From Nitrosopumilaceae archaeon (GTDB lineage Archaea; Thermoproteota; Nitrososphaeria; Nitrososphaerales; Nitrosopumilaceae): 64,000 nucleotides of DNA. The stretch's first letter is position 1, and every line of letters starts with the position of its first letter. The stretch spans positions 64,001 to 128,000 of the forward strand of contig CBDCCK010000002.1 of assembly GCA_965214835.1 (NCBI GenBank). The letters run 5' to 3'. Below the pieces are notes generated by a model. The model worked only from the letters and a program-made list of their open reading frames with translations. It ran no database searches and was not told where the DNA came from. Shown in pieces: positions 23,667 through 59,218 of this stretch. The translations under genes were made by a program, and so were the position numbers.

Positions 23667-24543
23667 CGACGCGCCTCATCTGCTCCATGGTGGAGCCAAA
23701 GCTTCCGCTGCCATGCGAGATGGCCTGCGTCAAATCGTTGAACACCTTCCACTGCGAGACCTTTTGCGTTATGGCTACCTTGTTGTTTTCCGGGTCGACT
23801 TCTATGTAGGGCAGCTTGCCATAGACGCGCTTTGGCATGTGGCTTACGACCTTTGCTGCCTGTTTTTCGAGAAGCTCGGCCTTTTTCATGGCGCGGTAGC
23901 TGCGGATGACGGCATCAGCAGACTTTATGACCTGCTTGATTGCCGGCAGGACGGTCTTCGTGTTCAGGGACTTTGTGTGTCTCTTGGAGACGGATGCCAG
24001 TGTCTGCGTCTTGTTCAGCCCGAGGTTTGCAGTTATCTTCTCGCCGTTTACCACCTTGAGCATTTTTTCAGAGTGGAGGTGCAGCATAAAGTTGCTGCAT
24101 ACCTCCCTGAAGGTAAAGATGGCAACACTGAAGGATCTCGAGCCGTCGATCGCGTTTCCGACGCTGTATCCCAGGTTCACGCGGTCGCCCTCGCCGGTTA
24201 TGTCCACGCCCTCGCGGAACGTGTACAGCGCCGACATGCTTGCAAGGTTCTTGCTTGCAAGGACGTGATCGTGTACCTCGTACCTTGAGAACCACTGGCG
24301 GTCATCAAAGACAAACGGTTTGGCGTCAAGCTTTTCTGCCATGCGGTCTGCCTTTTCTATGACCAGCTCGTTTGGAAGCACCTGGTACTTGTCTGAGAGA
24401 ATGGCGATGGGCTCGCCCTTTCTCTCTATAAACTGGTATTTGCCCCAGTCCTTGCCGTTTGCATGTATGCCGTACGTCTTGATTCCGTACTTGCGGAAGC
24501 TCTCCCTCCTCTTGATGGAGAGCCTGCTTCGTGTCTGTGACAT
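23629..24543 (-). CDS. DUF932-like protein
   Basis: ILSDKYQVLPNE, NAIDGSRSF, REVCSNFM, RHT, WKVFNDLT signatures. Confidence 0.8.
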   Translation of the reverse strand: MSQTRSRLSIKRRESFRKYGIKTYGIHANGKDWGKYQFIERKGEPIAILSDKYQVLPNELVIEKADRMAEKLDAKPFVFDDRQWFSRYEVHDHVLASKNLASMSALYTFREGVDITGEGDRVNLGYSVGNAIDGSRSFSVAIFTFREVCSNFMLHLHSEKMLKVVNGEKITANLGLNKTQTLASVSKRHTKSLNTKTVLPAIKQVIKSADAVIRSYRAMKKAELLEKQAAKVVSHMPKRVYGKLPYIEVDPENNKVAITQKVSQWKVFNDLTQAISHGSGSFGSTMEQMRRVDAIFAAHGRRGA

Positions 24544-50978: not shown

Positions 50979-51533
50979 TCAGTCTCTGCCGAAGAGACTG
51001 TTCCATTGTGCCAGGAGGCGACCAAAGACAGGCCACGAATACCCGTCGTCGTGACAAGGATGCGCGCCATACCTTCCAACGAAGAGATCGGCCCATACCT
51101 CGCTGGCAAAACTCTCACGATTCATGAGTCCATCGGCCATCTCCCGATGGCAGTGCCTCGTGAGCGCAGAGAGGTTCATGCCGTGTTTGATGGCGTGCCC
51201 TATCCACTCGGGATCGCCGGAGCGCGGCAGCAGGTTGGCCTCGTGATGCCCAAGCTCGTGGTAGAGTGTGTTCCTGACACACGCGCCGCAGTGCTGAATG
51301 CCGCAGATGGCAATCTCCATTGAGGAAGGGTCATAGTACCCGTAACAGTCAGGTCTCGAATCTTCCACGTAAAGGAGGCAGACGCCGCGCCTCAGGTACG
51401 ACGGTATGCGAAAATACTCCTCACGGATCATCTCGACTTCGTGGACGTACGGGCGCATCTCCGCGCAGACGGACACTGCCGTCTGTGGTTGCTCGCGGGG
51501 TCGGCTATTGAAGTGGTGAACAGATGTGTTCAT
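50979..51533 (-). CDS. Zinc metallopeptidase-like protein (HExxH), copy 1
   Basis: GYYDP...LYHELGHH...SEVWADLF. Confidence 0.75.
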   Translation of the reverse strand: MNTSVHHFNSRPREQPQTAVSVCAEMRPYVHEVEMIREEYFRIPSYLRRGVCLLYVEDSRPDCYGYYDPSSMEIAICGIQHCGACVRNTLYHELGHHEANLLPRSGDPEWIGHAIKHGMNLSALTRHCHREMADGLMNRESFASEVWADLFVGRYGAHPCHDDGYSWPVFGRLLAQWNSLFGRD

Positions 51534-51601
51534 TGTAATGTGTAACATGGAAAAAATGGGGGATGGGATGCGACAAACAGCCGCATCCGGATGAGGGGAC
51601 T

Positions 51602-51691
51602 TTAGTCCCAGATTTCCCGGTCTTCGGGATCCTCTTCGAACTCGCGGATTATGCGAGGGTAAAAGGGTGTCTTTTTCTTTTTGGAATTCAT
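51602..51691 (-). CDS. 29-aa micro-protein (duplicate at 53411..53500)
   Basis: MNSKKKKTPFYPRIIREFEEDPEDREIWD followed by a hairpin and T-tract. Confidence 0.4.
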   Translation of the reverse strand: MNSKKKKTPFYPRIIREFEEDPEDREIWD

Positions 51692-51817
51692 TACTGAAAT
51701 TTCTGGAATCAGGAAATGCCAAAGTCCTCTGCTGCGCCTGTTTCATAGATGTAATCCATGAGCGTAATGTGGAAATTCTTGTAAAGTGTAAATTGTAAAA
51801 AGAAAAAAAAAGGGGGA

Positions 51818-52375
51818 TCAGTCTCTGCCGAAGAGACTGTTCCATTTGGGGAGCAGGCGCCTGTAGGTGTCCCACGAATAGTGGAAACAGCTCCATCTGG
51901 ATCCGTGCCTTCCAACGAAGAACTCTGCAAAGACTTCCCCTGCGAATGTGTGCGTGTCCATCTCGCCGCGCTCCATCTTCTGATGGCAGAACTCAGTGTA
52001 CCACGAAAGGCTCCTGCCAAACTCAAGGGATGCAGCAGTCCAGTCCGGGTGTGCCCAGAGCTTGTGCGTCTTGGAGCAGTGGTGCCCGAGCTCATGGTAG
52101 ATGAGAGACCTTACGCATCTGCGACAGTGCTGCAATCCACAGACGGTGATCGTCTGATCCGTCCAACAATAGAACCCTCCACCTTCCGGTCTGGGCCCTG
52201 CAATGTGCAGACAGCGGATACCGCGCCTGAGATCAGGGCGGACGCGAAAGTACTCCTTGCGGATTATTCTGACAGCATGCTCATGTACGAGCATTTCCTT
52301 GCTGACAGTGAACTTCGGCGTGTAGCGCTCCGGAGAGCGTCGGCATTTGAAGATGTTTGTAAACATGTTCACCAT
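51818..52375 (-). CDS. Zinc metallopeptidase-like protein (HExxH), divergent paralog
   Basis: GFYCW...IYHELGHH...GEVFAEFF. Confidence 0.75.
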   Translation of the reverse strand: MVNMFTNIFKCRRSPERYTPKFTVSKEMLVHEHAVRIIRKEYFRVRPDLRRGIRCLHIAGPRPEGGGFYCWTDQTITVCGLQHCRRCVRSLIYHELGHHCSKTHKLWAHPDWTAASLEFGRSLSWYTEFCHQKMERGEMDTHTFAGEVFAEFFVGRHGSRWSCFHYSWDTYRRLLPKWNSLFGRD

Positions 52376-52787: not shown

Positions 52788-53342
52788 TCAGTCTCCGCCG
52801 AAGAGACTGTTCCATTGTGCCAGGAGGCGACCAAAGACAGGCCACGAATACCCGTCGTCGTGACAAGGATGCGCGCCATACCTTCCAACGAAGAGCTCGG
52901 CCCATACCTCGCTGGCAAAACTCTCACGATTCATGAGTCCATCGGCCATCTCCCGATGGCAGTGCCTCGTGAGCGCAGAGAGGTTCATGCCGTGTTTGAT
53001 GGCGTGCCCTATCCACTCGGGATCGCCGGAGCGCGGCAGCATGTTGGCCTCGTGATGCCCAAGCTCGTGGTAGAGTGTGTTCCTGACACACGCGCCGCAG
53101 TGCTGAATGCCGCAGATGGCAATCTCCATTGAGGAAGGGTCATAGTACCCGTAACAGTCAGGTCTCGAATCTTCCACGTAAAGGAGGCAGACGCCGCGCC
53201 TCAGGTACGACGGTGTGCGAAAATACTCCTCACGGATCATCTCGACTTCGTGGACGTACGGGCGCATCTCCGCGCAGACGGACACTGCCGTCTGTGGTTG
53301 CTCGCGGGGTCGGCTATTGAAGTGGTGAACAGATGTGTTCAT
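52788..53342 (-). CDS. Zinc metallopeptidase-like protein (HExxH), near-identical duplicate of copy 1
   Basis: Part of an ~850-bp near-identical duplication (about 50884-51725 vs 52693-53535). Confidence 0.75.
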   Translation of the reverse strand: MNTSVHHFNSRPREQPQTAVSVCAEMRPYVHEVEMIREEYFRTPSYLRRGVCLLYVEDSRPDCYGYYDPSSMEIAICGIQHCGACVRNTLYHELGHHEANMLPRSGDPEWIGHAIKHGMNLSALTRHCHREMADGLMNRESFASEVWAELFVGRYGAHPCHDDGYSWPVFGRLLAQWNSLFGGD

Positions 53343-53537
53343 TGTAATGTGTAACATGGAAAAAATGGGGGATGGGATGCGACAAACAGCCGCATCCGGA
53401 TGAGGGGACTTTAGTCCCAGATTTCCCGGTCTTCGGGATCCTCTTCGAACTCGCGGATTATGCGAGGGTAAAAGGGTGTCTTTTTCTTTTTGGAATTCAT
53501 TACTGAAATTTCTGGAATCAGGAAATGCCAAAGTCGG

Positions 53538-55195
53538 CGGAGTTATATGGTGGGATAATTGTACAGGAAATGGTGATGAGGGCTCAGACTGCTCCCTGTC
53601 TTCATTGCATCGCAGTGATGCTCAGAATGAATGGTGTCTCATCATCGCCCTCGTTTGTGTAGCAGAATAATGCGGGAATCTAATCGGCAAAGCAGGTTGG
53701 AGTTATATTACAGAATAATGATTCAGGAAATGGTGATGAGGGCTCAGACAACGCCAGATTCATCATGAATCAGACTGGGGGTGTCTCATCATCGCCCTCG
53801 TTTGTGTAGCAGAATAATGCGGGAATTTTCAAAGTCAGAATGGCTGGAGTTATATGGTGGAGTGTGGTACGAAACATGGTGATGAGGGCTCAGATGTCAC
53901 GGCTTTCTTCATAGCCACGACAGGCTCGGAGATTATTGCTGATCTCGGCCCTTTGTTCTTCATCATCGCCCTCGTTTGTGTAGCAGAATAATGCGGGAAT
54001 TTTCAAAGTCAGAATGGCTGGAGTTATATGGTGGAGTGTGGTACGAAACATGGTGATGAGGGCTCAGACAACGCCAGATTCATCATGAATCAGACTGTGT
54101 GTGTCTCATCATCGCCCTCGTTTGTGTAGCAGAATAATGCGGGAATTTTCAAAGTTGGAATGGCTGGAGTTATATGGTGGAGTGTGGTACGAAACATGGT
54201 GATGAGGGCTCAGACAACGCCAGATTCATCATGAATCAGACTGTTGGTGTCTCATCATCGCCCTCGTTTGTACAGCATAATTTGCAGAAGTTTCTGCTTC
54301 AAAGTTGGCTGGAGTTATATGGTGGAGTGTGGTACGAAACATGGTGATGAGGGCTCAGACTGATCTCTGTCGTCATTGCATCGCAGTGATGCTCAGTATG
54401 AATGGTGTCTCATCATCGCCCTCGTTTGTGTAGCGGAATAATGCGGGAATCTAATCGGCAAAGCAGGTTGGAGTTATATTACAGAATAATGATTCAGGAA
54501 ATGGTGATGAGGGCTCAGATAGGTAGCTGTCTTCATTCACGAAGTCAGAATAACAGGCTGTCATCATCGCCCTCGTCTGTGTAGCGGAACAATACGGGAA
54601 TCTCGGCGGCAAATCAGGTTGGAGTTATATGGTGGGATGATAATTCAGGAAATGGTGATGAGGGCTCAGACTGACTCGACCGTCATTGCATCACAATGAT
54701 GCTCCGGATGAATGGAACTCATCATCGCCCTTGTTTGTGTAGCGGAATAATACGAAAATCAAAAGTTAGAATGGCTGAAGTTATATGGTGGAGTGTGGTA
54801 CGAAACATGGTGATGAGGGCTCAGAATGCTAACTGTCTTCATTCGTGAAGTCAGTATAACAGGCTGTCATCATCGCCCTCGTTTGTGTAGCAGAATAATG
54901 CCGGAATGACCGGGTTGGAGTTATATTGCAGAATGATGATTCGGGAAATGGTGATGAGGGCTCAGACCTATAGCTGTCTTCATTCGTGAAGTCAGAATGA
55001 ATGGAACTCATCATCGCCCTCGTTTGTGTAGCAGAATAATGCGGGAATCTAATCGGCAAAGCAGGTTGGAGTTATATTGTGGAATGATAATTCAGGAAAT
55101 GGTGATGAGGGCTCAGATAGGTAGCTGTCTTCATTCGTGAAGTCAGAATGAATGGAACTCATCATCGCCCTCGTTTGTGCAGCGTAATAATGCCG
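53538..55195 (-). ncRNA. Tandem array of 11 box C/D guide RNA units (53578-53652, 53738-53799, 53884-53973, 54058-54119, 54204-54265, 54349-54423, 54509-54574, 54660-54732, 54815-54880, 54956-55021, 55107-55172)
   Basis: Each unit reads GAGGGC-G-AUGAUGA(C)-guide-CUGA(D')-loop/stem-AUGA(U/A/C)GA(C')-guide-CUGA(D)-GCCCUC, with K-turn geometry and roughly 10-13-nt guides; D' is variant (CCGA, CGGA) in units 3 and 8. Confidence 0.93.
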
Positions 55196-55271: not shown

Positions 55272-55508
55272 CGTCCTCGAATTCGGGGACGCTTGGCGGA
55301 TTTTTCGGCGTTTTTGAAGAGTTGTCTTAAAGATAGAGATTTTTCCTAATGTTGCAGTTCTGTTTTGTTTGGGATTATTCCCGGTTTTTTGTGCCTACCT
55401 CTGGATCTTTTGTATTAAGGACGTTTTGCGGGGGTATACTATCCAGTTTTTGGGGGCGTCCCCGATACCGGGGACGGAGGGGCAAAAGCGTCCCCGAATT
55501 CGGGGACG
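55272..55508. promoter_or_regulatory. Three 20-bp palindromes CGTCCCCGAATTCGGGGACG (55272-55291, 55457-55476, 55489-55508); candidate centromere/operator
   Basis: One perfect and two near-perfect copies directly upstream of the actin-like gene. Confidence 0.7.
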
Positions 55509-55547
55509 CCTTTTTGGCCATTAAATGCAAACCGTGCTGCGGTATGC

Positions 55548-56459
55548 ATGGGAAGAAGCACAGAGTCCACGCCGGCCGGCGGGAAGGCGGCATCTCTAGG
55601 AGGCGCCGACATCGCCGTCGGGCTGGACATCGGGACAGGATCAGTCAAGGTCGCGACCAGAAGGCACCGCTTCAAGTTCCCGTCGGTCGTGGCAAGGGGC
55701 CGGGCAATATCCGTCGACGGCTCGGAGCCCGAGTCCGTGTTTGTCGGGGAGCAGGCAATGCGGCAGGAGCACGTCAGGTCCATGCTGCTCAAGACGCCAG
55801 TATACCGGGGGGTGCCGACTGCGATGGACGACTATATCGAGCTGGTGCGGCACGCCCTCGACCTGGTGATCAGGGCCGACAGGAACACGGTCTGGCACGG
55901 GCCGTCAGGATACTCGGAGATGGCAATAGTGGCAGGCATCCCGTACAACTCGCGGGACAGGGTGGAGGCCATAAAGAAGGCAGTGCAGGCCGAGTTTGCC
56001 CCGCACAGGTTCGGCGTGATGTTCCAGGCCAGGGCAACGCTTGAAAACGAGGGGATGAGGGACGGAATAGTGTGCCATATCGGCCACGGGACGACAGAGA
56101 TGATGGCGGTAATCGGCGGGAACACCGCATACGGGGAGACCGTGCCTCACGGCGTGGGAGACGTCGTCATGGCAGTCACGGGATCCAGGACAGGATACAC
56201 CGACCACTCGGTGTTTGCTTCGGGCTCGCAGCTGCTGGCAGAAAACAGGCGCATACTTGCCGGCCACATAGCCGACAGCCTTGAGAAGATAGTCATAGAC
56301 TATCCGGGGCTGGACGTGGTGTTTGCAGGCGGCGGGGCGCTTGTACCGAAGCTGGTAGGCGAGATACGGGTCAGGACGTCGGGGACTGTCAGGACGGCAG
56401 ACGAGCCGGTGTTTTCAAACGCCCTGGGAATGCTGAAGAAGGCGACGGGGCTGTGCTGA
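55548..56459 (+). CDS. Actin-like ATPase (ParM/StbA/MreB superfamily)
   Basis: GLDIGTGSVK (phosphate 1), HIGHGTTE (phosphate 2), FAGGGA (adenosine), F.NALG. Confidence 0.85.
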   Translation: MGRSTESTPAGGKAASLGGADIAVGLDIGTGSVKVATRRHRFKFPSVVARGRAISVDGSEPESVFVGEQAMRQEHVRSMLLKTPVYRGVPTAMDDYIELVRHALDLVIRADRNTVWHGPSGYSEMAIVAGIPYNSRDRVEAIKKAVQAEFAPHRFGVMFQARATLENEGMRDGIVCHIGHGTTEMMAVIGGNTAYGETVPHGVGDVVMAVTGSRTGYTDHSVFASGSQLLAENRRILAGHIADSLEKIVIDYPGLDVVFAGGGALVPKLVGEIRVRTSGTVRTADEPVFSNALGMLKKATGLC

Positions 56460-57939: not shown

Positions 57940-58050
57940 GTAACAGGTCGGGCTCTGGAAGTTCAGGCATGAATTTTACCACCAAAGAGGCCTCCGCAGA
58001 TGTAATTCGTGCCTAAAATCACAAGTCACTTCCAAAGTCCGAGCTGTTAC
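57940..58050. mobile_element. 111-bp MITE with GTAAC termini and 8-bp target duplication (IS66-like ends)
   Basis: GTAACAGGTCGGGCTCTGGAAGT...ACTTCCAAAGTCCGAGCTGTTAC flanked by CCTTTAGT on both sides. Confidence 0.85.
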
Positions 58051-59218
58051 CCTTTAGTTCCTTTTTCGAGTTTCGCTTTCTGATTGCCGTTGTCGTGACG
58101 TCGCAAAAACCGTAATGCGACATCATGTCTGCATAAATCCTCTCGGTCGGAACTACGGTCCCGTAGAACGTGGAGTTTCCTATTATATAGTGGGCCCTGG
58201 CACCCGGCCTGAGTACGCGTCGCACGGACTCAAAATGCCTCGACATGTCGTCGCAGTACTTGCCCACGTAGTTTGACAGGACCTTCCCGCTGCGGTCGTT
58301 TCCTGCAATGCTGCGCAGTATCTTCCCGACATATTCAGGGATCCACGACCTTCCACCAGTCCAGCCTGCAAGCCTGCTGGTGGCAATTCCCCACGTCCCG
58401 CCGATGGTACGCCAGTCCATCTCGCCTGCATCGCGCCCGCTTGAAAGGTGGCCAAGCCAGTACATGAACGGACGCAGTTCGCGTATGTATGACATTCTGT
58501 TGGCGTACGGCGGGGACGTAATTATGACGTCAAACATGGATGCGGCGTCCGAAAACTCGCGGGAATCCCCGAGCATGACGCTTACCTTCCCGTATACCGG
58601 CCGTCCAGCGCCGGCGATGACAAAGTCCAGGTTACGCAGAAAGACATCCCTCATCCCGGCACTGGACTGCACGCTGTTCGGCGCGTCCTTGAACGACATG
58701 GACTGGTGGCCGAAATCGGCGCAGGAGAGCTGGATCAGCGTCCTGCAGAATGCGACGTAAAGCAGGTCAGACACGCCGCCCCCGGTCCGCATTATCCCGG
58801 TCTTGAGGCGCCTGATGAACATCTCGGCGTCACATGACCACCACCGGCGCATGTTGTGGATCGGGGGGGACGGCTCTGGCTGTACATGTGGCCCGTCTTC
58901 CAGGATGAGACGTCCAGCCCTTTTGGCGGATCTTATCGTGTCTGCACCGTAATGCCCCGTCTTTGCTCTGGCCAGCCACACCAGGAACGGGTTTACGTCT
59001 ATCGTGGTCGCATCATGACCCCGGTCTGCCGCACATAGTGCAGTAGTACCCACGCCGCAGAACGGATCAAGTATCAGACTGCCTGCAGGACACCGTGATA
59101 TGATCTCGTCGACGATCCTGACAGAATATGCCGGGGTAAGACGCAGCCATCCGTGTCTGCCTGCATCCGTGTTGAATTTGTAGGTATAGTCGCTTCTCTG
59201 CTCTAGCGCAGCCATCAC
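58019..59218 (-). CDS. DNA methyltransferase (FxGxG before SPPY); C-terminus altered by the MITE
   Basis: LDPFCGVGTT, ITSPPYAN; without the MITE the frame ends KELKEFRVSATWPGS* at 57897. Confidence 0.88.
   Translation of the reverse strand: MMAALEQRSDYTYKFNTDAGRHGWLRLTPAYSVRIVDEIISRCPAGSLILDPFCGVGTTALCAADRGHDATTIDVNPFLVWLARAKTGHYGADTIRSAKRAGRLILEDGPHVQPEPSPPIHNMRRWWSCDAEMFIRRLKTGIMRTGGGVSDLLYVAFCRTLIQLSCADFGHQSMSFKDAPNSVQSSAGMRDVFLRNLDFVIAGAGRPVYGKVSVMLGDSREFSDAASMFDVIITSPPYANRMSYIRELRPFMYWLGHLSSGRDAGEMDWRTIGGTWGIATSRLAGWTGGRSWIPEYVGKILRSIAGNDRSGKVLSNYVGKYCDDMSRHFESVRRVLRPGARAHYIIGNSTFYGTVVPTERIYADMMSHYGFCDVTTTAIRKRNSKKELKGNSSDFGSDL

Follow-up and report, generated by a model that had tools for sequence, protein, structure and literature searches.

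A 64,000-nucleotide (nt) stretch of the genome of a Nitrosopumilaceae archaeon (GenBank assembly GCA_965214835.1, contig CBDCCK010000002.1, positions 64,001 to 128,000 of the forward strand; this whole stretch is called the window, and positions are counted from its first letter) carries a tandem array of 11 box C/D small RNA (sRNA) genes. The array occupies 53578-55172 on the minus strand and is built of ~150-bp units, as delimited by Tandem Repeats Finder. The D' guides of two of these genes, units 7 and 9, are predicted from their pairing with the 23S ribosomal RNA (rRNA) of the same organism to direct 2'-O-methylation at the equivalent of Escherichia coli A2451, in the peptidyl-transferase centre. 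With a probability that we put at roughly 0.55, units 7 and 9 are functional double-guide box C/D sRNA genes, and their common guide would be a selected, mobile guide for methylation directed at the peptidyl-transferase centre. The observations behind this reading are the sRNA anatomy of the two units, the perfect complementarity between guide and host rRNA, the conservation of guide core and register across different sRNA scaffolds, the presence of the ribonucleoprotein (RNP) proteins in the host, and a link with modules borne by insertion sequences (IS).

Pairing of the unit 7 and unit 9 guides with 23S rRNA

The initial annotation of this DNA had proposed that two guides in the interval 54549..54866 address A2451. 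The two guides mark the exact ends of this interval; both were located on the minus strand, each preceded by a C box (AUGAUGA) and followed by a D' box (CUGA), and the sole difference between the two copies is the nucleotide adjoining box D', as the annotation had stated. Each gene is closed by a 6-bp terminal stem (GAGGGC/GCCCUC), with a D' spacer of 12 nt and a D spacer of 11 nt. The C, D' and D boxes are canonical; the C' box (AUGAAGA) shows one deviation from UGAUGA.

The host genome gives a single match for large-subunit rRNA (G000:C2:2956751-2959751, minus strand) and likewise one for small-subunit rRNA. The 23S target strand reads GGGAUAACAGGCUCGUCG, in the wider context ...CCCCAGGGAUAACAGGCUCGUCGCGG... 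Guide positions 2-11 form ten contiguous Watson-Crick pairs (10/10) with nt 2551-2560 of the host 23S rRNA; position 1 forms a G.U pair in unit 7 and is an A opposite G, unpaired, in unit 9, and position 12 faces its counterpart as a C/C mismatch. A duplex of 10 bp over guide positions 2-11 is what the structures of archaeal C/D RNPs accommodate. The partner of position 5 is nt 2554. It is the second A of GAUAAC in GAUA[A]CAGGCU and aligns with the A of GGGGAUA[A]CAGGCUGAU, residue 2457 of a 2914-nt E. coli rrl copy; in standard numbering this residue is A2451. The proposal that A2451 is the target is thus borne out by the host 23S rRNA together with the rule that the fifth guide position marks the methylated residue (+5 rule), and the comparative data given below strengthen it. 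Where the annotation had named about nine contiguous pairs as the lower limit for its claim, the alignment gives ten.

The proteins for such an RNP are encoded by the host. Its fibrillarin and Nop5 genes are adjacent, an L7Ae gene is present, and the sole Nop-domain match of the genome is the Nop5 gene; within the window, none of the 77 open reading frames (ORFs) scanned with Pfam encodes a Nop domain. At least two stand-alone C/D sRNA candidates of the host have targets near the peptidyl-transferase centre: the guides at G000:C2:1642789-1642860 and C2:1775260-1775340 match 23S nt 2544 (9/10) and nt 2613 (10/10), respectively.

Other guides of the array and chance controls

Units 8, 10 and 11 have in common the D' guide GUUCCAUUCAU(U/C), which forms 11 pairs with host 23S rRNA (core UUCCAUUCAU); the predicted methylation site is the A of CA(U/C)G[A]AUGG in helix 71 (23S nt 2076), approximately E. 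coli A1969. The common D guide of units 2, 4 and 5, AUCUGGCGUUGU, pairs over 10/10 core positions with host 16S rRNA (core UCUGGCGUUG); here the methyl group is expected on the C of CAA[C]GC, which is nt 909 and belongs to the helix 31 region. The D guide of unit 1 pairs at 16S nt 1327 with nine Watson-Crick pairs and one GU pair. The perfect matches at 23S nt 2076 and 16S nt 909 show that the array bears ordinary rRNA guides alongside the one for A2451.

The frequency of such matches was compared with that expected by chance. The array has 14 distinct 10-nt guide cores, and 3 of them match host 16S or 23S rRNA without a mismatch, against a Poisson expectation of 0.059 (P(≥3) = 3.3e-5); shuffling of the guides gave three perfect cores once in 20,000 trials. 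Genome-wide, 10-mers antisense to rRNA and followed by N+CTGA occur at background frequency (156 sites versus 127 and 104 in two controls). A C or C' box at guide distance is also present at 8 of the 156 sites, seven of them in the array and one upstream of a transposase gene (C2:2908242). Because three of 14 cores are perfect and the core recurs in other genomes, we do not regard the A2451-type guide as a chance match.

Two further observations concern guides of the array. The D' guides of units 2, 4 and 5 differ in three central nucleotides only (GACAC-CCC/ACA/CAA-CAGU pattern, positions 5-7), which looks like diversification around the methylation site; a clear target was not found for them, the best being a tRNA-Thr-like call with 9/10 pairs and the mismatch beside the site. 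The D guide of unit 3, AAGCCGUGACAU, matches the anticodon loop of tRNA-Asp(GUC) at 10/10 (G000:C2:1337904-1337981), the fifth position falling on the last anticodon base.

Conservation of the guide core and its register

Occurrence of the guide was assessed in 400 other genomes of the class. A loose pattern, AGCCTGTTATNCTGA, was found in 10 of them at 14 places, against 3 for the reversed control; 11 of the 14 places lie in a C/D sRNA context and three do not. With a box placed 4-7 nt upstream (ATGAN{4,7}CCTGTTATNCTGA), matches were obtained in 6 of the 400 genomes and none in the control. Every one of these matches carries the full 10-nt core, though the pattern demands only 8 of its bases. 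Among ammonia-oxidising archaea the guide thus has a sporadic distribution. Other genomes of the class that carry the core, complete or nearly so, have one to three copies of it, and the target AUAACAGGCU is present in all five carrier genomes tested.

A search of one genome per species (185,579 species) returned 19 loci, seven of which are sRNAs of Nitrososphaeria type; the other 12 (11 bacterial, one Methanosphaera) have no sRNA features. By record title the seven belong to Candidatus Nitrosocaldus schleperae (3), Cenarchaeum sp., a Nitrosopumilaceae archaeon, a Thaumarchaeota archaeon and a Caldimicrobium contig, the last of which contains an sRNA of Nitrosocaldus type. A scan of metagenomes added 13 loci but no new scaffold: two are Nitrosocaldus-type sRNAs, nine lack an sRNA context, and two are identical to one another (L099 and L101). 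Contigs of four runs contain the array region with a few variants, and the guide of unit 9 is also retained in contigs of another study, where the linker differs.

The core was found in three scaffolds. The first is that of the array, and the second, the Nitrosocaldus type, is distinguished by a long GGAGAAGGGG/CCCCUUCUCC stem; in both the core serves as D' guide. The third is a single-guide type composed of a C box, a hairpin, a degenerate C' box, the guide and a D box, with the core as D guide. Together the three scaffolds provide 13 distinct instances, all with an identical 10-nt core. The flanking positions differ: U, A and G all occur at position 1, and position 12 is not constant either, being in the Nitrosocaldus type an A that faces a U of those genomes' own 23S rRNA. 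A pattern shifted to the +1 register, which would place the methyl group on C2452, occurs at 6 places in the 400 genomes, none of them (0/6) in an sRNA context or preceded by a box. A constant core between variable flanks, always in one register, is what a C/D guide in use would be expected to show.

The Nitrosocaldus-type loci (L004, L005, L014, L017, L087, L036) make up a small double-guide sRNA family in which the promoter-like and the downstream flanks are conserved. In one genome, three of four members have the A2451-type D' guide, and the fourth pairs at the U2506 equivalent (nine Watson-Crick pairs and one GU pair); in another genome the partner D guide matches nine contiguous nucleotides at the U2586 equivalent. 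The family thus looks like one devoted to strands of the catalytic centre. The metagenome contigs L099 and L101 have AUGAUGU followed by AAGCCUGUUAUU-CUGA behind a TATA-like box, with no recognisable C'/D half; they may represent another lineage's guide to the A2451 site, or chance.

Association with IS6-family elements and an accessory island

Single-guide C/D sRNAs were found 45-55 nt upstream of a multi-copy IS6-family transposase gene (Pfam DDE_Tnp_IS240 plus HTH), and the guides vary between these IS6-linked copies. In one relative, two copies of the element are 99.96% identical over 2560 bp and end in inverted repeats of ~55 bp; they contain an ORF with a DUF4760 domain, the sRNA and the transposase gene. 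Since the inverted repeats enclose both the sRNA and the transposase gene, the sRNA is considered to be cargo of the 2560-bp element. Homologues of the transposase are present in 16 of 41 genomes of the family. A universal association was considered and rejected: a C/D-like RNA lies upstream of just 2 of 17 full-length homologues sampled, so that the arrangement belongs to a subgroup only. The linked loci are L010, L016 and L018 (one relative), L008, L011 and L060, and G000:C2:2908193 (L082), C2:2720352 and C2:1121449 in the genome studied here.

One of the IS-linked guides (C2:2908242) pairs at 10/10 with the decoding-centre strand of 16S rRNA, at the U of GUCG[U]AACAAGG. Two findings tie the array to these modules. 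Unit 3 and the transposase-linked copy at C2:1121449 share a 24-nt string made up of guide, D box and stem; and a solo unit at C2:1620630-1620705 combines array-type ends (ACGAGGGCGAUGAUGA ... CUGAGCCCUCAUC) with IS-type upstream and promoter-like downstream flanks, with no transposase gene after it. On account of the shared string and of this intermediate arrangement, the array is assigned to the IS-borne sRNA lineage; judged from these sequences, it is an amplified derivative of the C/D sRNA module by which IS6-family transposase genes are preceded elsewhere.

The surroundings of the array have few recognisable genes. Pfam matches are lacking for 7 of 13 ORFs scanned between 45 and 63.3 kb and for 59 of 64 in the rest of the window. 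The region holds an actin-like (ParM-type) gene, two DNA methyltransferase genes, a nuclease gene and a DDE transposase gene. Among four congeners, pieces of the island are present in one only (76% complete; 98% identity to 54966-55178), and three are without it. The array region is accessory and probably mobile. Clear borders were not found when a second copy of the tRNA at 2617-2687 was sought and the GC profile of the first 260 kb was inspected. In viral contigs the guide pattern had no match and the array-scaffold pattern had two, both in coding-like sequence without sRNA features. A PHROGs scan of 51 ORFs gave no capsid, portal or terminase match, and Pfam and PHROGs recognised no known toxin-antitoxin or defence family among the neighbouring genes.

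A 21-nt palindrome (CGTCCCCGAATTCGGGGACGC type) occurs three times, at 55272-55292, 55457-55477 and 55489-55509, directly upstream of the gene for the actin-like protein of ParM type (55548-56459). The three palindromes could act as centromere in a system for partition, as would fit an integrated plasmid-like element.

Function of the guide and alternative explanations

In the mechanism that we favour, the unit 7 or unit 9 sRNA would be expressed and bound by L7Ae, Nop5 and fibrillarin of the host, and its D' guide would pair with nascent 23S rRNA over ten nucleotides (host 2551-2560, E. coli 2448-2457). Fibrillarin would thereby be positioned on the ribose of the A2451 equivalent, and the ribosome would have to tolerate the methyl group that it transfers. 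Most likely the guide helps to build or tune the peptidyl-transferase centre, via pairing during assembly together with methylation. For guides that are mobile, the choice of target may reflect portability: universally conserved rRNA strands would be favoured because only those still match in a new host.

According to PMC2919715 (Table 1), the 2'-OH of A2451 is the critical rRNA group: in reconstituted Thermus ribosomes its removal makes peptide-bond formation ~100-fold slower. With a deoxy-abasic residue at 2451 the relative rate of peptide-bond formation is 0.01 and that of poly(Phe) synthesis 0.13, whereas a ribose-abasic residue leaves nearly normal activity. In a review the hydroxyl is described as hydrogen donor (PMC13215694). 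A methyl ether cannot donate hydrogen, and full methylation of A2451 is therefore expected to be costly.

This expectation is the first of several points that weigh against a methylating guide. Stoichiometric 2'-O-methyl-A2451 (Am2451) should be harmful, which argues that the transfer is either absent or not benign. For the D guides of units 7 and 9 a target was found neither in rRNA nor in tRNA (best rRNA match below 8.5/10, best tRNA match 8/10), and in the genome their exact complements are confined to the array itself. The guide is rare (6 of 400 genomes) and hence not part of a core function, and it is absent from four of six sampled genomes of the genus that has the Nitrosocaldus-type carriers. 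The registers scanned were that of A2451 and the +1 register, a single neighbouring register being the sole comparison, and the invariance of core and box could partly stem from the spread of one module by recombination. Taking both sides together, we rank a selected guide that methylates, acts as a chaperone, or does both, first, and one that acts by pairing only second; throttling of the ribosome and resistance are live but unsupported.

An assembly chaperone only, which holds the 2448-2457 strand during folding of the centre while methylation of A2451 is blocked, rare or irrelevant, would escape the expected cost of Am2451. One Nitrosocaldus-type sRNA addresses two strands of the centre (the A2451 and U2586 equivalents), as such a chaperone might, and Dennis et al. 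(2015; PMC4644070) argue that the clustering of guides around the centre aids folding. However, pairing alone would not need a register that is fixed in 13 of 13 instances and that has no sRNA-like counterpart at +1. The boxes and spacing match a catalytically competent D' site, and units 7 and 9 lack a second rRNA guide with which to bridge. We consider this explanation unlikely, though it fares best among the alternatives.

The expected cost of a methylated A2451 also led to the suggestion in the initial annotation that the guides poison or throttle host ribosomes, as a toxin or in abortive defence, dormancy or host takeover. In this case a selfish element would slow or disable ribosomes by A2451 methylation; either the island or IS would profit from this, or the effect would be part of an abortive response. 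The critical 2'-OH in vitro, the position of the array in an accessory island with its ParM-like gene, DNA methylases, nuclease and hardly any Pfam-recognisable genes, the location of sRNA relatives inside an IS6-type element with terminal inverted repeats and the sporadic distribution would all be compatible with it. Yet the carrier genomes keep one to three copies together with a matched target, none of five carriers has an immune target variant, and the present host has a single rRNA operon. Guides to ordinary sites share the array and the scaffolds, neither a partner gene nor an antidote or inducible feature could be recognised beside the units, and virus hallmark genes and matches of the guide in viral contigs were likewise not found. 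A throttle is consequently quite unlikely, and the guide is not likely to be a weapon; this part of the annotation finds no support.

Methylation at the A-site cleft could instead shield the ribosome from natural products that bind the centre, which would make the guide a mobile resistance determinant. Several inhibitors bind between A2451 and C2452, and ribose methylation of 23S A1067 by the enzyme of the thiostrepton producer confers resistance. The patchy spread on mobile DNA resembles that of resistance genes, and the IS-linked guide to the 16S decoding-centre strand would fit as well. On the other side, other array guides aim at sites that are not known as drug sites, and the cost of losing the 2'-OH persists; this explanation is less likely still than a throttle. 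Decaying or non-functional repeats, in which the 23S match would be a relic or coincidence and the units would be unused, are very improbable: the degenerate D' box of unit 8, the missing D' box of unit 3 and the orphan D guides of units 7 and 9 are outweighed by the three perfect cores, by the invariant core with variable flanks in three scaffolds and several genera, and by the intact boxes and stems of units 7 and 9.

Relation to known guide RNA systems

The units share with archaeal double-guide box C/D sRNAs (RF00095, RF01152) the C/D and C'/D' boxes, the 12-nt guides, the terminal stem and the +5 rule. Targets of archaeal guides cluster around the peptidyl-transferase centre and helices 68-71, as stated by Dennis et al. 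2015 (PMC4644070) and Breuer et al. 2021 (PMC7994747). In contrast to the catalogued archaeal C/D sRNAs, the predicted site is here the catalytic A2451, and the genes are arrayed and linked with IS modules rather than scattered as single genes. A text search of the sRNA table of Dennis et al. (PMC4644070, supplementary file 1, seven species) found no 7-mer spanning A2451 in guide position. The nearest case in that table is sR101 of Methanococcus maripaludis, whose D' guide UGUUAUCCCCGG is directed at this 23S strand as well (PMC4644070). Its methyl group, counted from its sequence, falls five nucleotides upstream on the G2446 equivalent, a ribose that is not implicated in catalysis. Yeast guides of the snR38 type target the same G as sR101.

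Among arrayed guide systems, TIGR-Tas (Faure et al. 2025, PMC12045711) likewise combines tandem dual-spacer guide arrays with mobile elements and a Nop5-related Nop-domain reader, but is described there with 36-nt RNAs, 12-nt repeats, ~9-nt spacers, DNA targets and an adjacent Tas gene. Membership in TIGR-Tas was rejected for the present array, which has ~150-bp units with full k-turn boxes and guides that match rRNA, with no Nop-domain ORF among those scanned in the window. Clustered archaeal C/D sRNA genes also stand several in a row, possibly with a common precursor; the present cluster comprises 11 paralogous units, and the clusters of archaeal C/D sRNA genes treated by Tripp et al. in 2017 reportedly have few members. 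In IS110 (bridge RNA) and IS200/IS605 (omega RNA), a structured guide RNA gene lies by the transposase gene and guides recombination or cleavage of DNA by the element itself. The IS6-linked RNAs resemble these in standing beside a transposase gene, but have C/D boxes and guides that match rRNA, and they look like cargo that would act on the host ribosome.

Within the library searched, full-text searches found no description linking box C/D sRNAs to transposases or mobile DNA, no 'Am2451' and nothing that joins A2451, box sRNA and archaea; A2451, O-methylation and fibrillarin came together in just two papers, one of them the review PMC13215694, and literature on Nitrososphaera or Nitrosopumilus together with box C/D sRNAs or fibrillarin was not found either. 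The anatomy of the units is ordinary; the predicted target and the mode of gene carriage are extraordinary.

Atomic mutagenesis singles out one rRNA group for peptide-bond formation, the ribose 2'-OH of A2451, and this evidence comes entirely from reconstituted bacterial ribosomes. A natural, selected guide predicted to cap this hydroxyl would provide a direct in vivo test of the catalytic model. If the carriers have Am2451, either the model needs revision or there is a new layer of translational control or resistance: functional ribosomes would contradict the in vitro view that hydrogen-bond donation by the hydroxyl is obligatory, or else the cell or element would use the modification as a translation dial or as protection against inhibitors. 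If the carriers lack Am2451, a competent-looking C/D guide can persist for pairing alone. Array-amplified C/D guide genes linked with IS6 elements would allow rRNA modification patterns to move between genomes. The full proposition, that insertion sequences and amplified arrays serve ammonia-oxidising archaea to swap programmable guides for ribosome modification and that one of these guides truly 2'-O-methylates A2451, we hold to be rather doubtful.

Anatomy of the array

The units are arranged in the order GAGGGC-G-AUGAUGA, 12-nt guide, CUGA, linker, C' box, 11-12-nt guide and CUGA-GCCCUC (Table 1). Both internal boxes are present in 9 of the 11 units; the D' box of unit 8 is degenerate (CGGA), and in unit 3, which has no D' box, a long internal hairpin takes the place of the D' site. 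The array consists of shuffled guide modules among 11 paralogues, each rRNA guide being common to two or three units, and BLAST of one unit against the whole genome shows the family arrayed at one place only.

Unit 2 reaches the gathering score of Rfam snoPyro_CD RF00095 (45.7 bits versus 45). At a relaxed threshold (E≤0.1) Rfam gives 41 matches, all to C/D-type families and all on the minus strand. Units 7 and 9 match sR1 (RF01152) below the gathering score, at 54513-54571 (E=0.0049, 22.4 bits) and 54819-54877 (E=0.00059, 25.5 bits), respectively. A reading of the plus strand, where a C-box-like GUGAUGA and an upstream TATA-like TTATAT are present, was rejected, the D box being absent and Rfam matches numbering zero.

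Table 1. Positions in the window of the array units and of the elements of units 7 and 9.
Feature	Position	Strand	Remark
Unit 1	53578-53652	-	box C/D sRNA
Unit 2	53738-53799	-	box C/D sRNA
Unit 3	53884-53973	-	box C/D sRNA
Unit 4	54058-54119	-	box C/D sRNA
Unit 5	54204-54265	-	box C/D sRNA
Unit 6	54349-54423	-	box C/D sRNA
Unit 7	54509-54574	-	box C/D sRNA
Unit 8	54660-54732	-	box C/D sRNA
Unit 9	54815-54880	-	box C/D sRNA
Unit 10	54956-55021	-	box C/D sRNA
Unit 11	55107-55172	-	box C/D sRNA
Units 2, 4 and 5 span	53738..54265	-	common D guide to 16S nt 909 (predicted)
Units 10 and 11	54956..55172	-	D' guide to 23S nt 2076 (predicted)
Unit 7 5' stem GAGGGC	54569-54574	-	
Unit 7 C box AUGAUGA	54561-54567	-	
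Unit 7 D' guide CAGCCUGUUAUU	54549-54560	-	12 nt
Unit 7 D' box CUGA	54545-54548	-	
Unit 7 linker	54537-54544	-	
Unit 7 C' box AUGAAGA	54530-54536	-	
Unit 7 D guide CAGCUACCUAU	54519-54529	-	orphan
Unit 7 D box CUGA	54515-54518	-	
Unit 7 3' stem GCCCUC	54509-54514	-	
Unit 9 5' stem	54875-54880	-	
Unit 9 C box AUGAUGA	54867-54873	-	
Unit 9 D' guide CAGCCUGUUAUA	54855-54866	-	12 nt
Unit 9 D' box CUGA	54851-54854	-	
Unit 9 linker	54843-54850	-	
Unit 9 C' box AUGAAGA	54836-54842	-	
Unit 9 D guide CAGUUAGCAUU	54825-54835	-	orphan
Unit 9 D box	54821-54824	-	
Unit 9 3' stem	54815-54820	-	

Other features of the window

A repeat of ~112 bp at 57940-58051 occurs in dozens of copies in the genome and in one congener, in the manner of a miniature inverted-repeat transposable element. 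Between 50940 and 52769 there are three TGTAAAG mini-repeats, ~900 bp apart, beside the ORFs 50979-51896 and 52788-53531; these ORFs have weak PHROG matches annotated as 'metallo-protease' and may derive from a tandem gene triplication. ARAGORN calls two long tRNA-like genes, at 1293-1382 (Thr-agt, 90 nt) and 23939-24034 (Thr-tgt, 96 nt), which do not appear in Rfam at the gathering score; the tRNA at 2617-2687 is the sole one called by both ARAGORN and Rfam.

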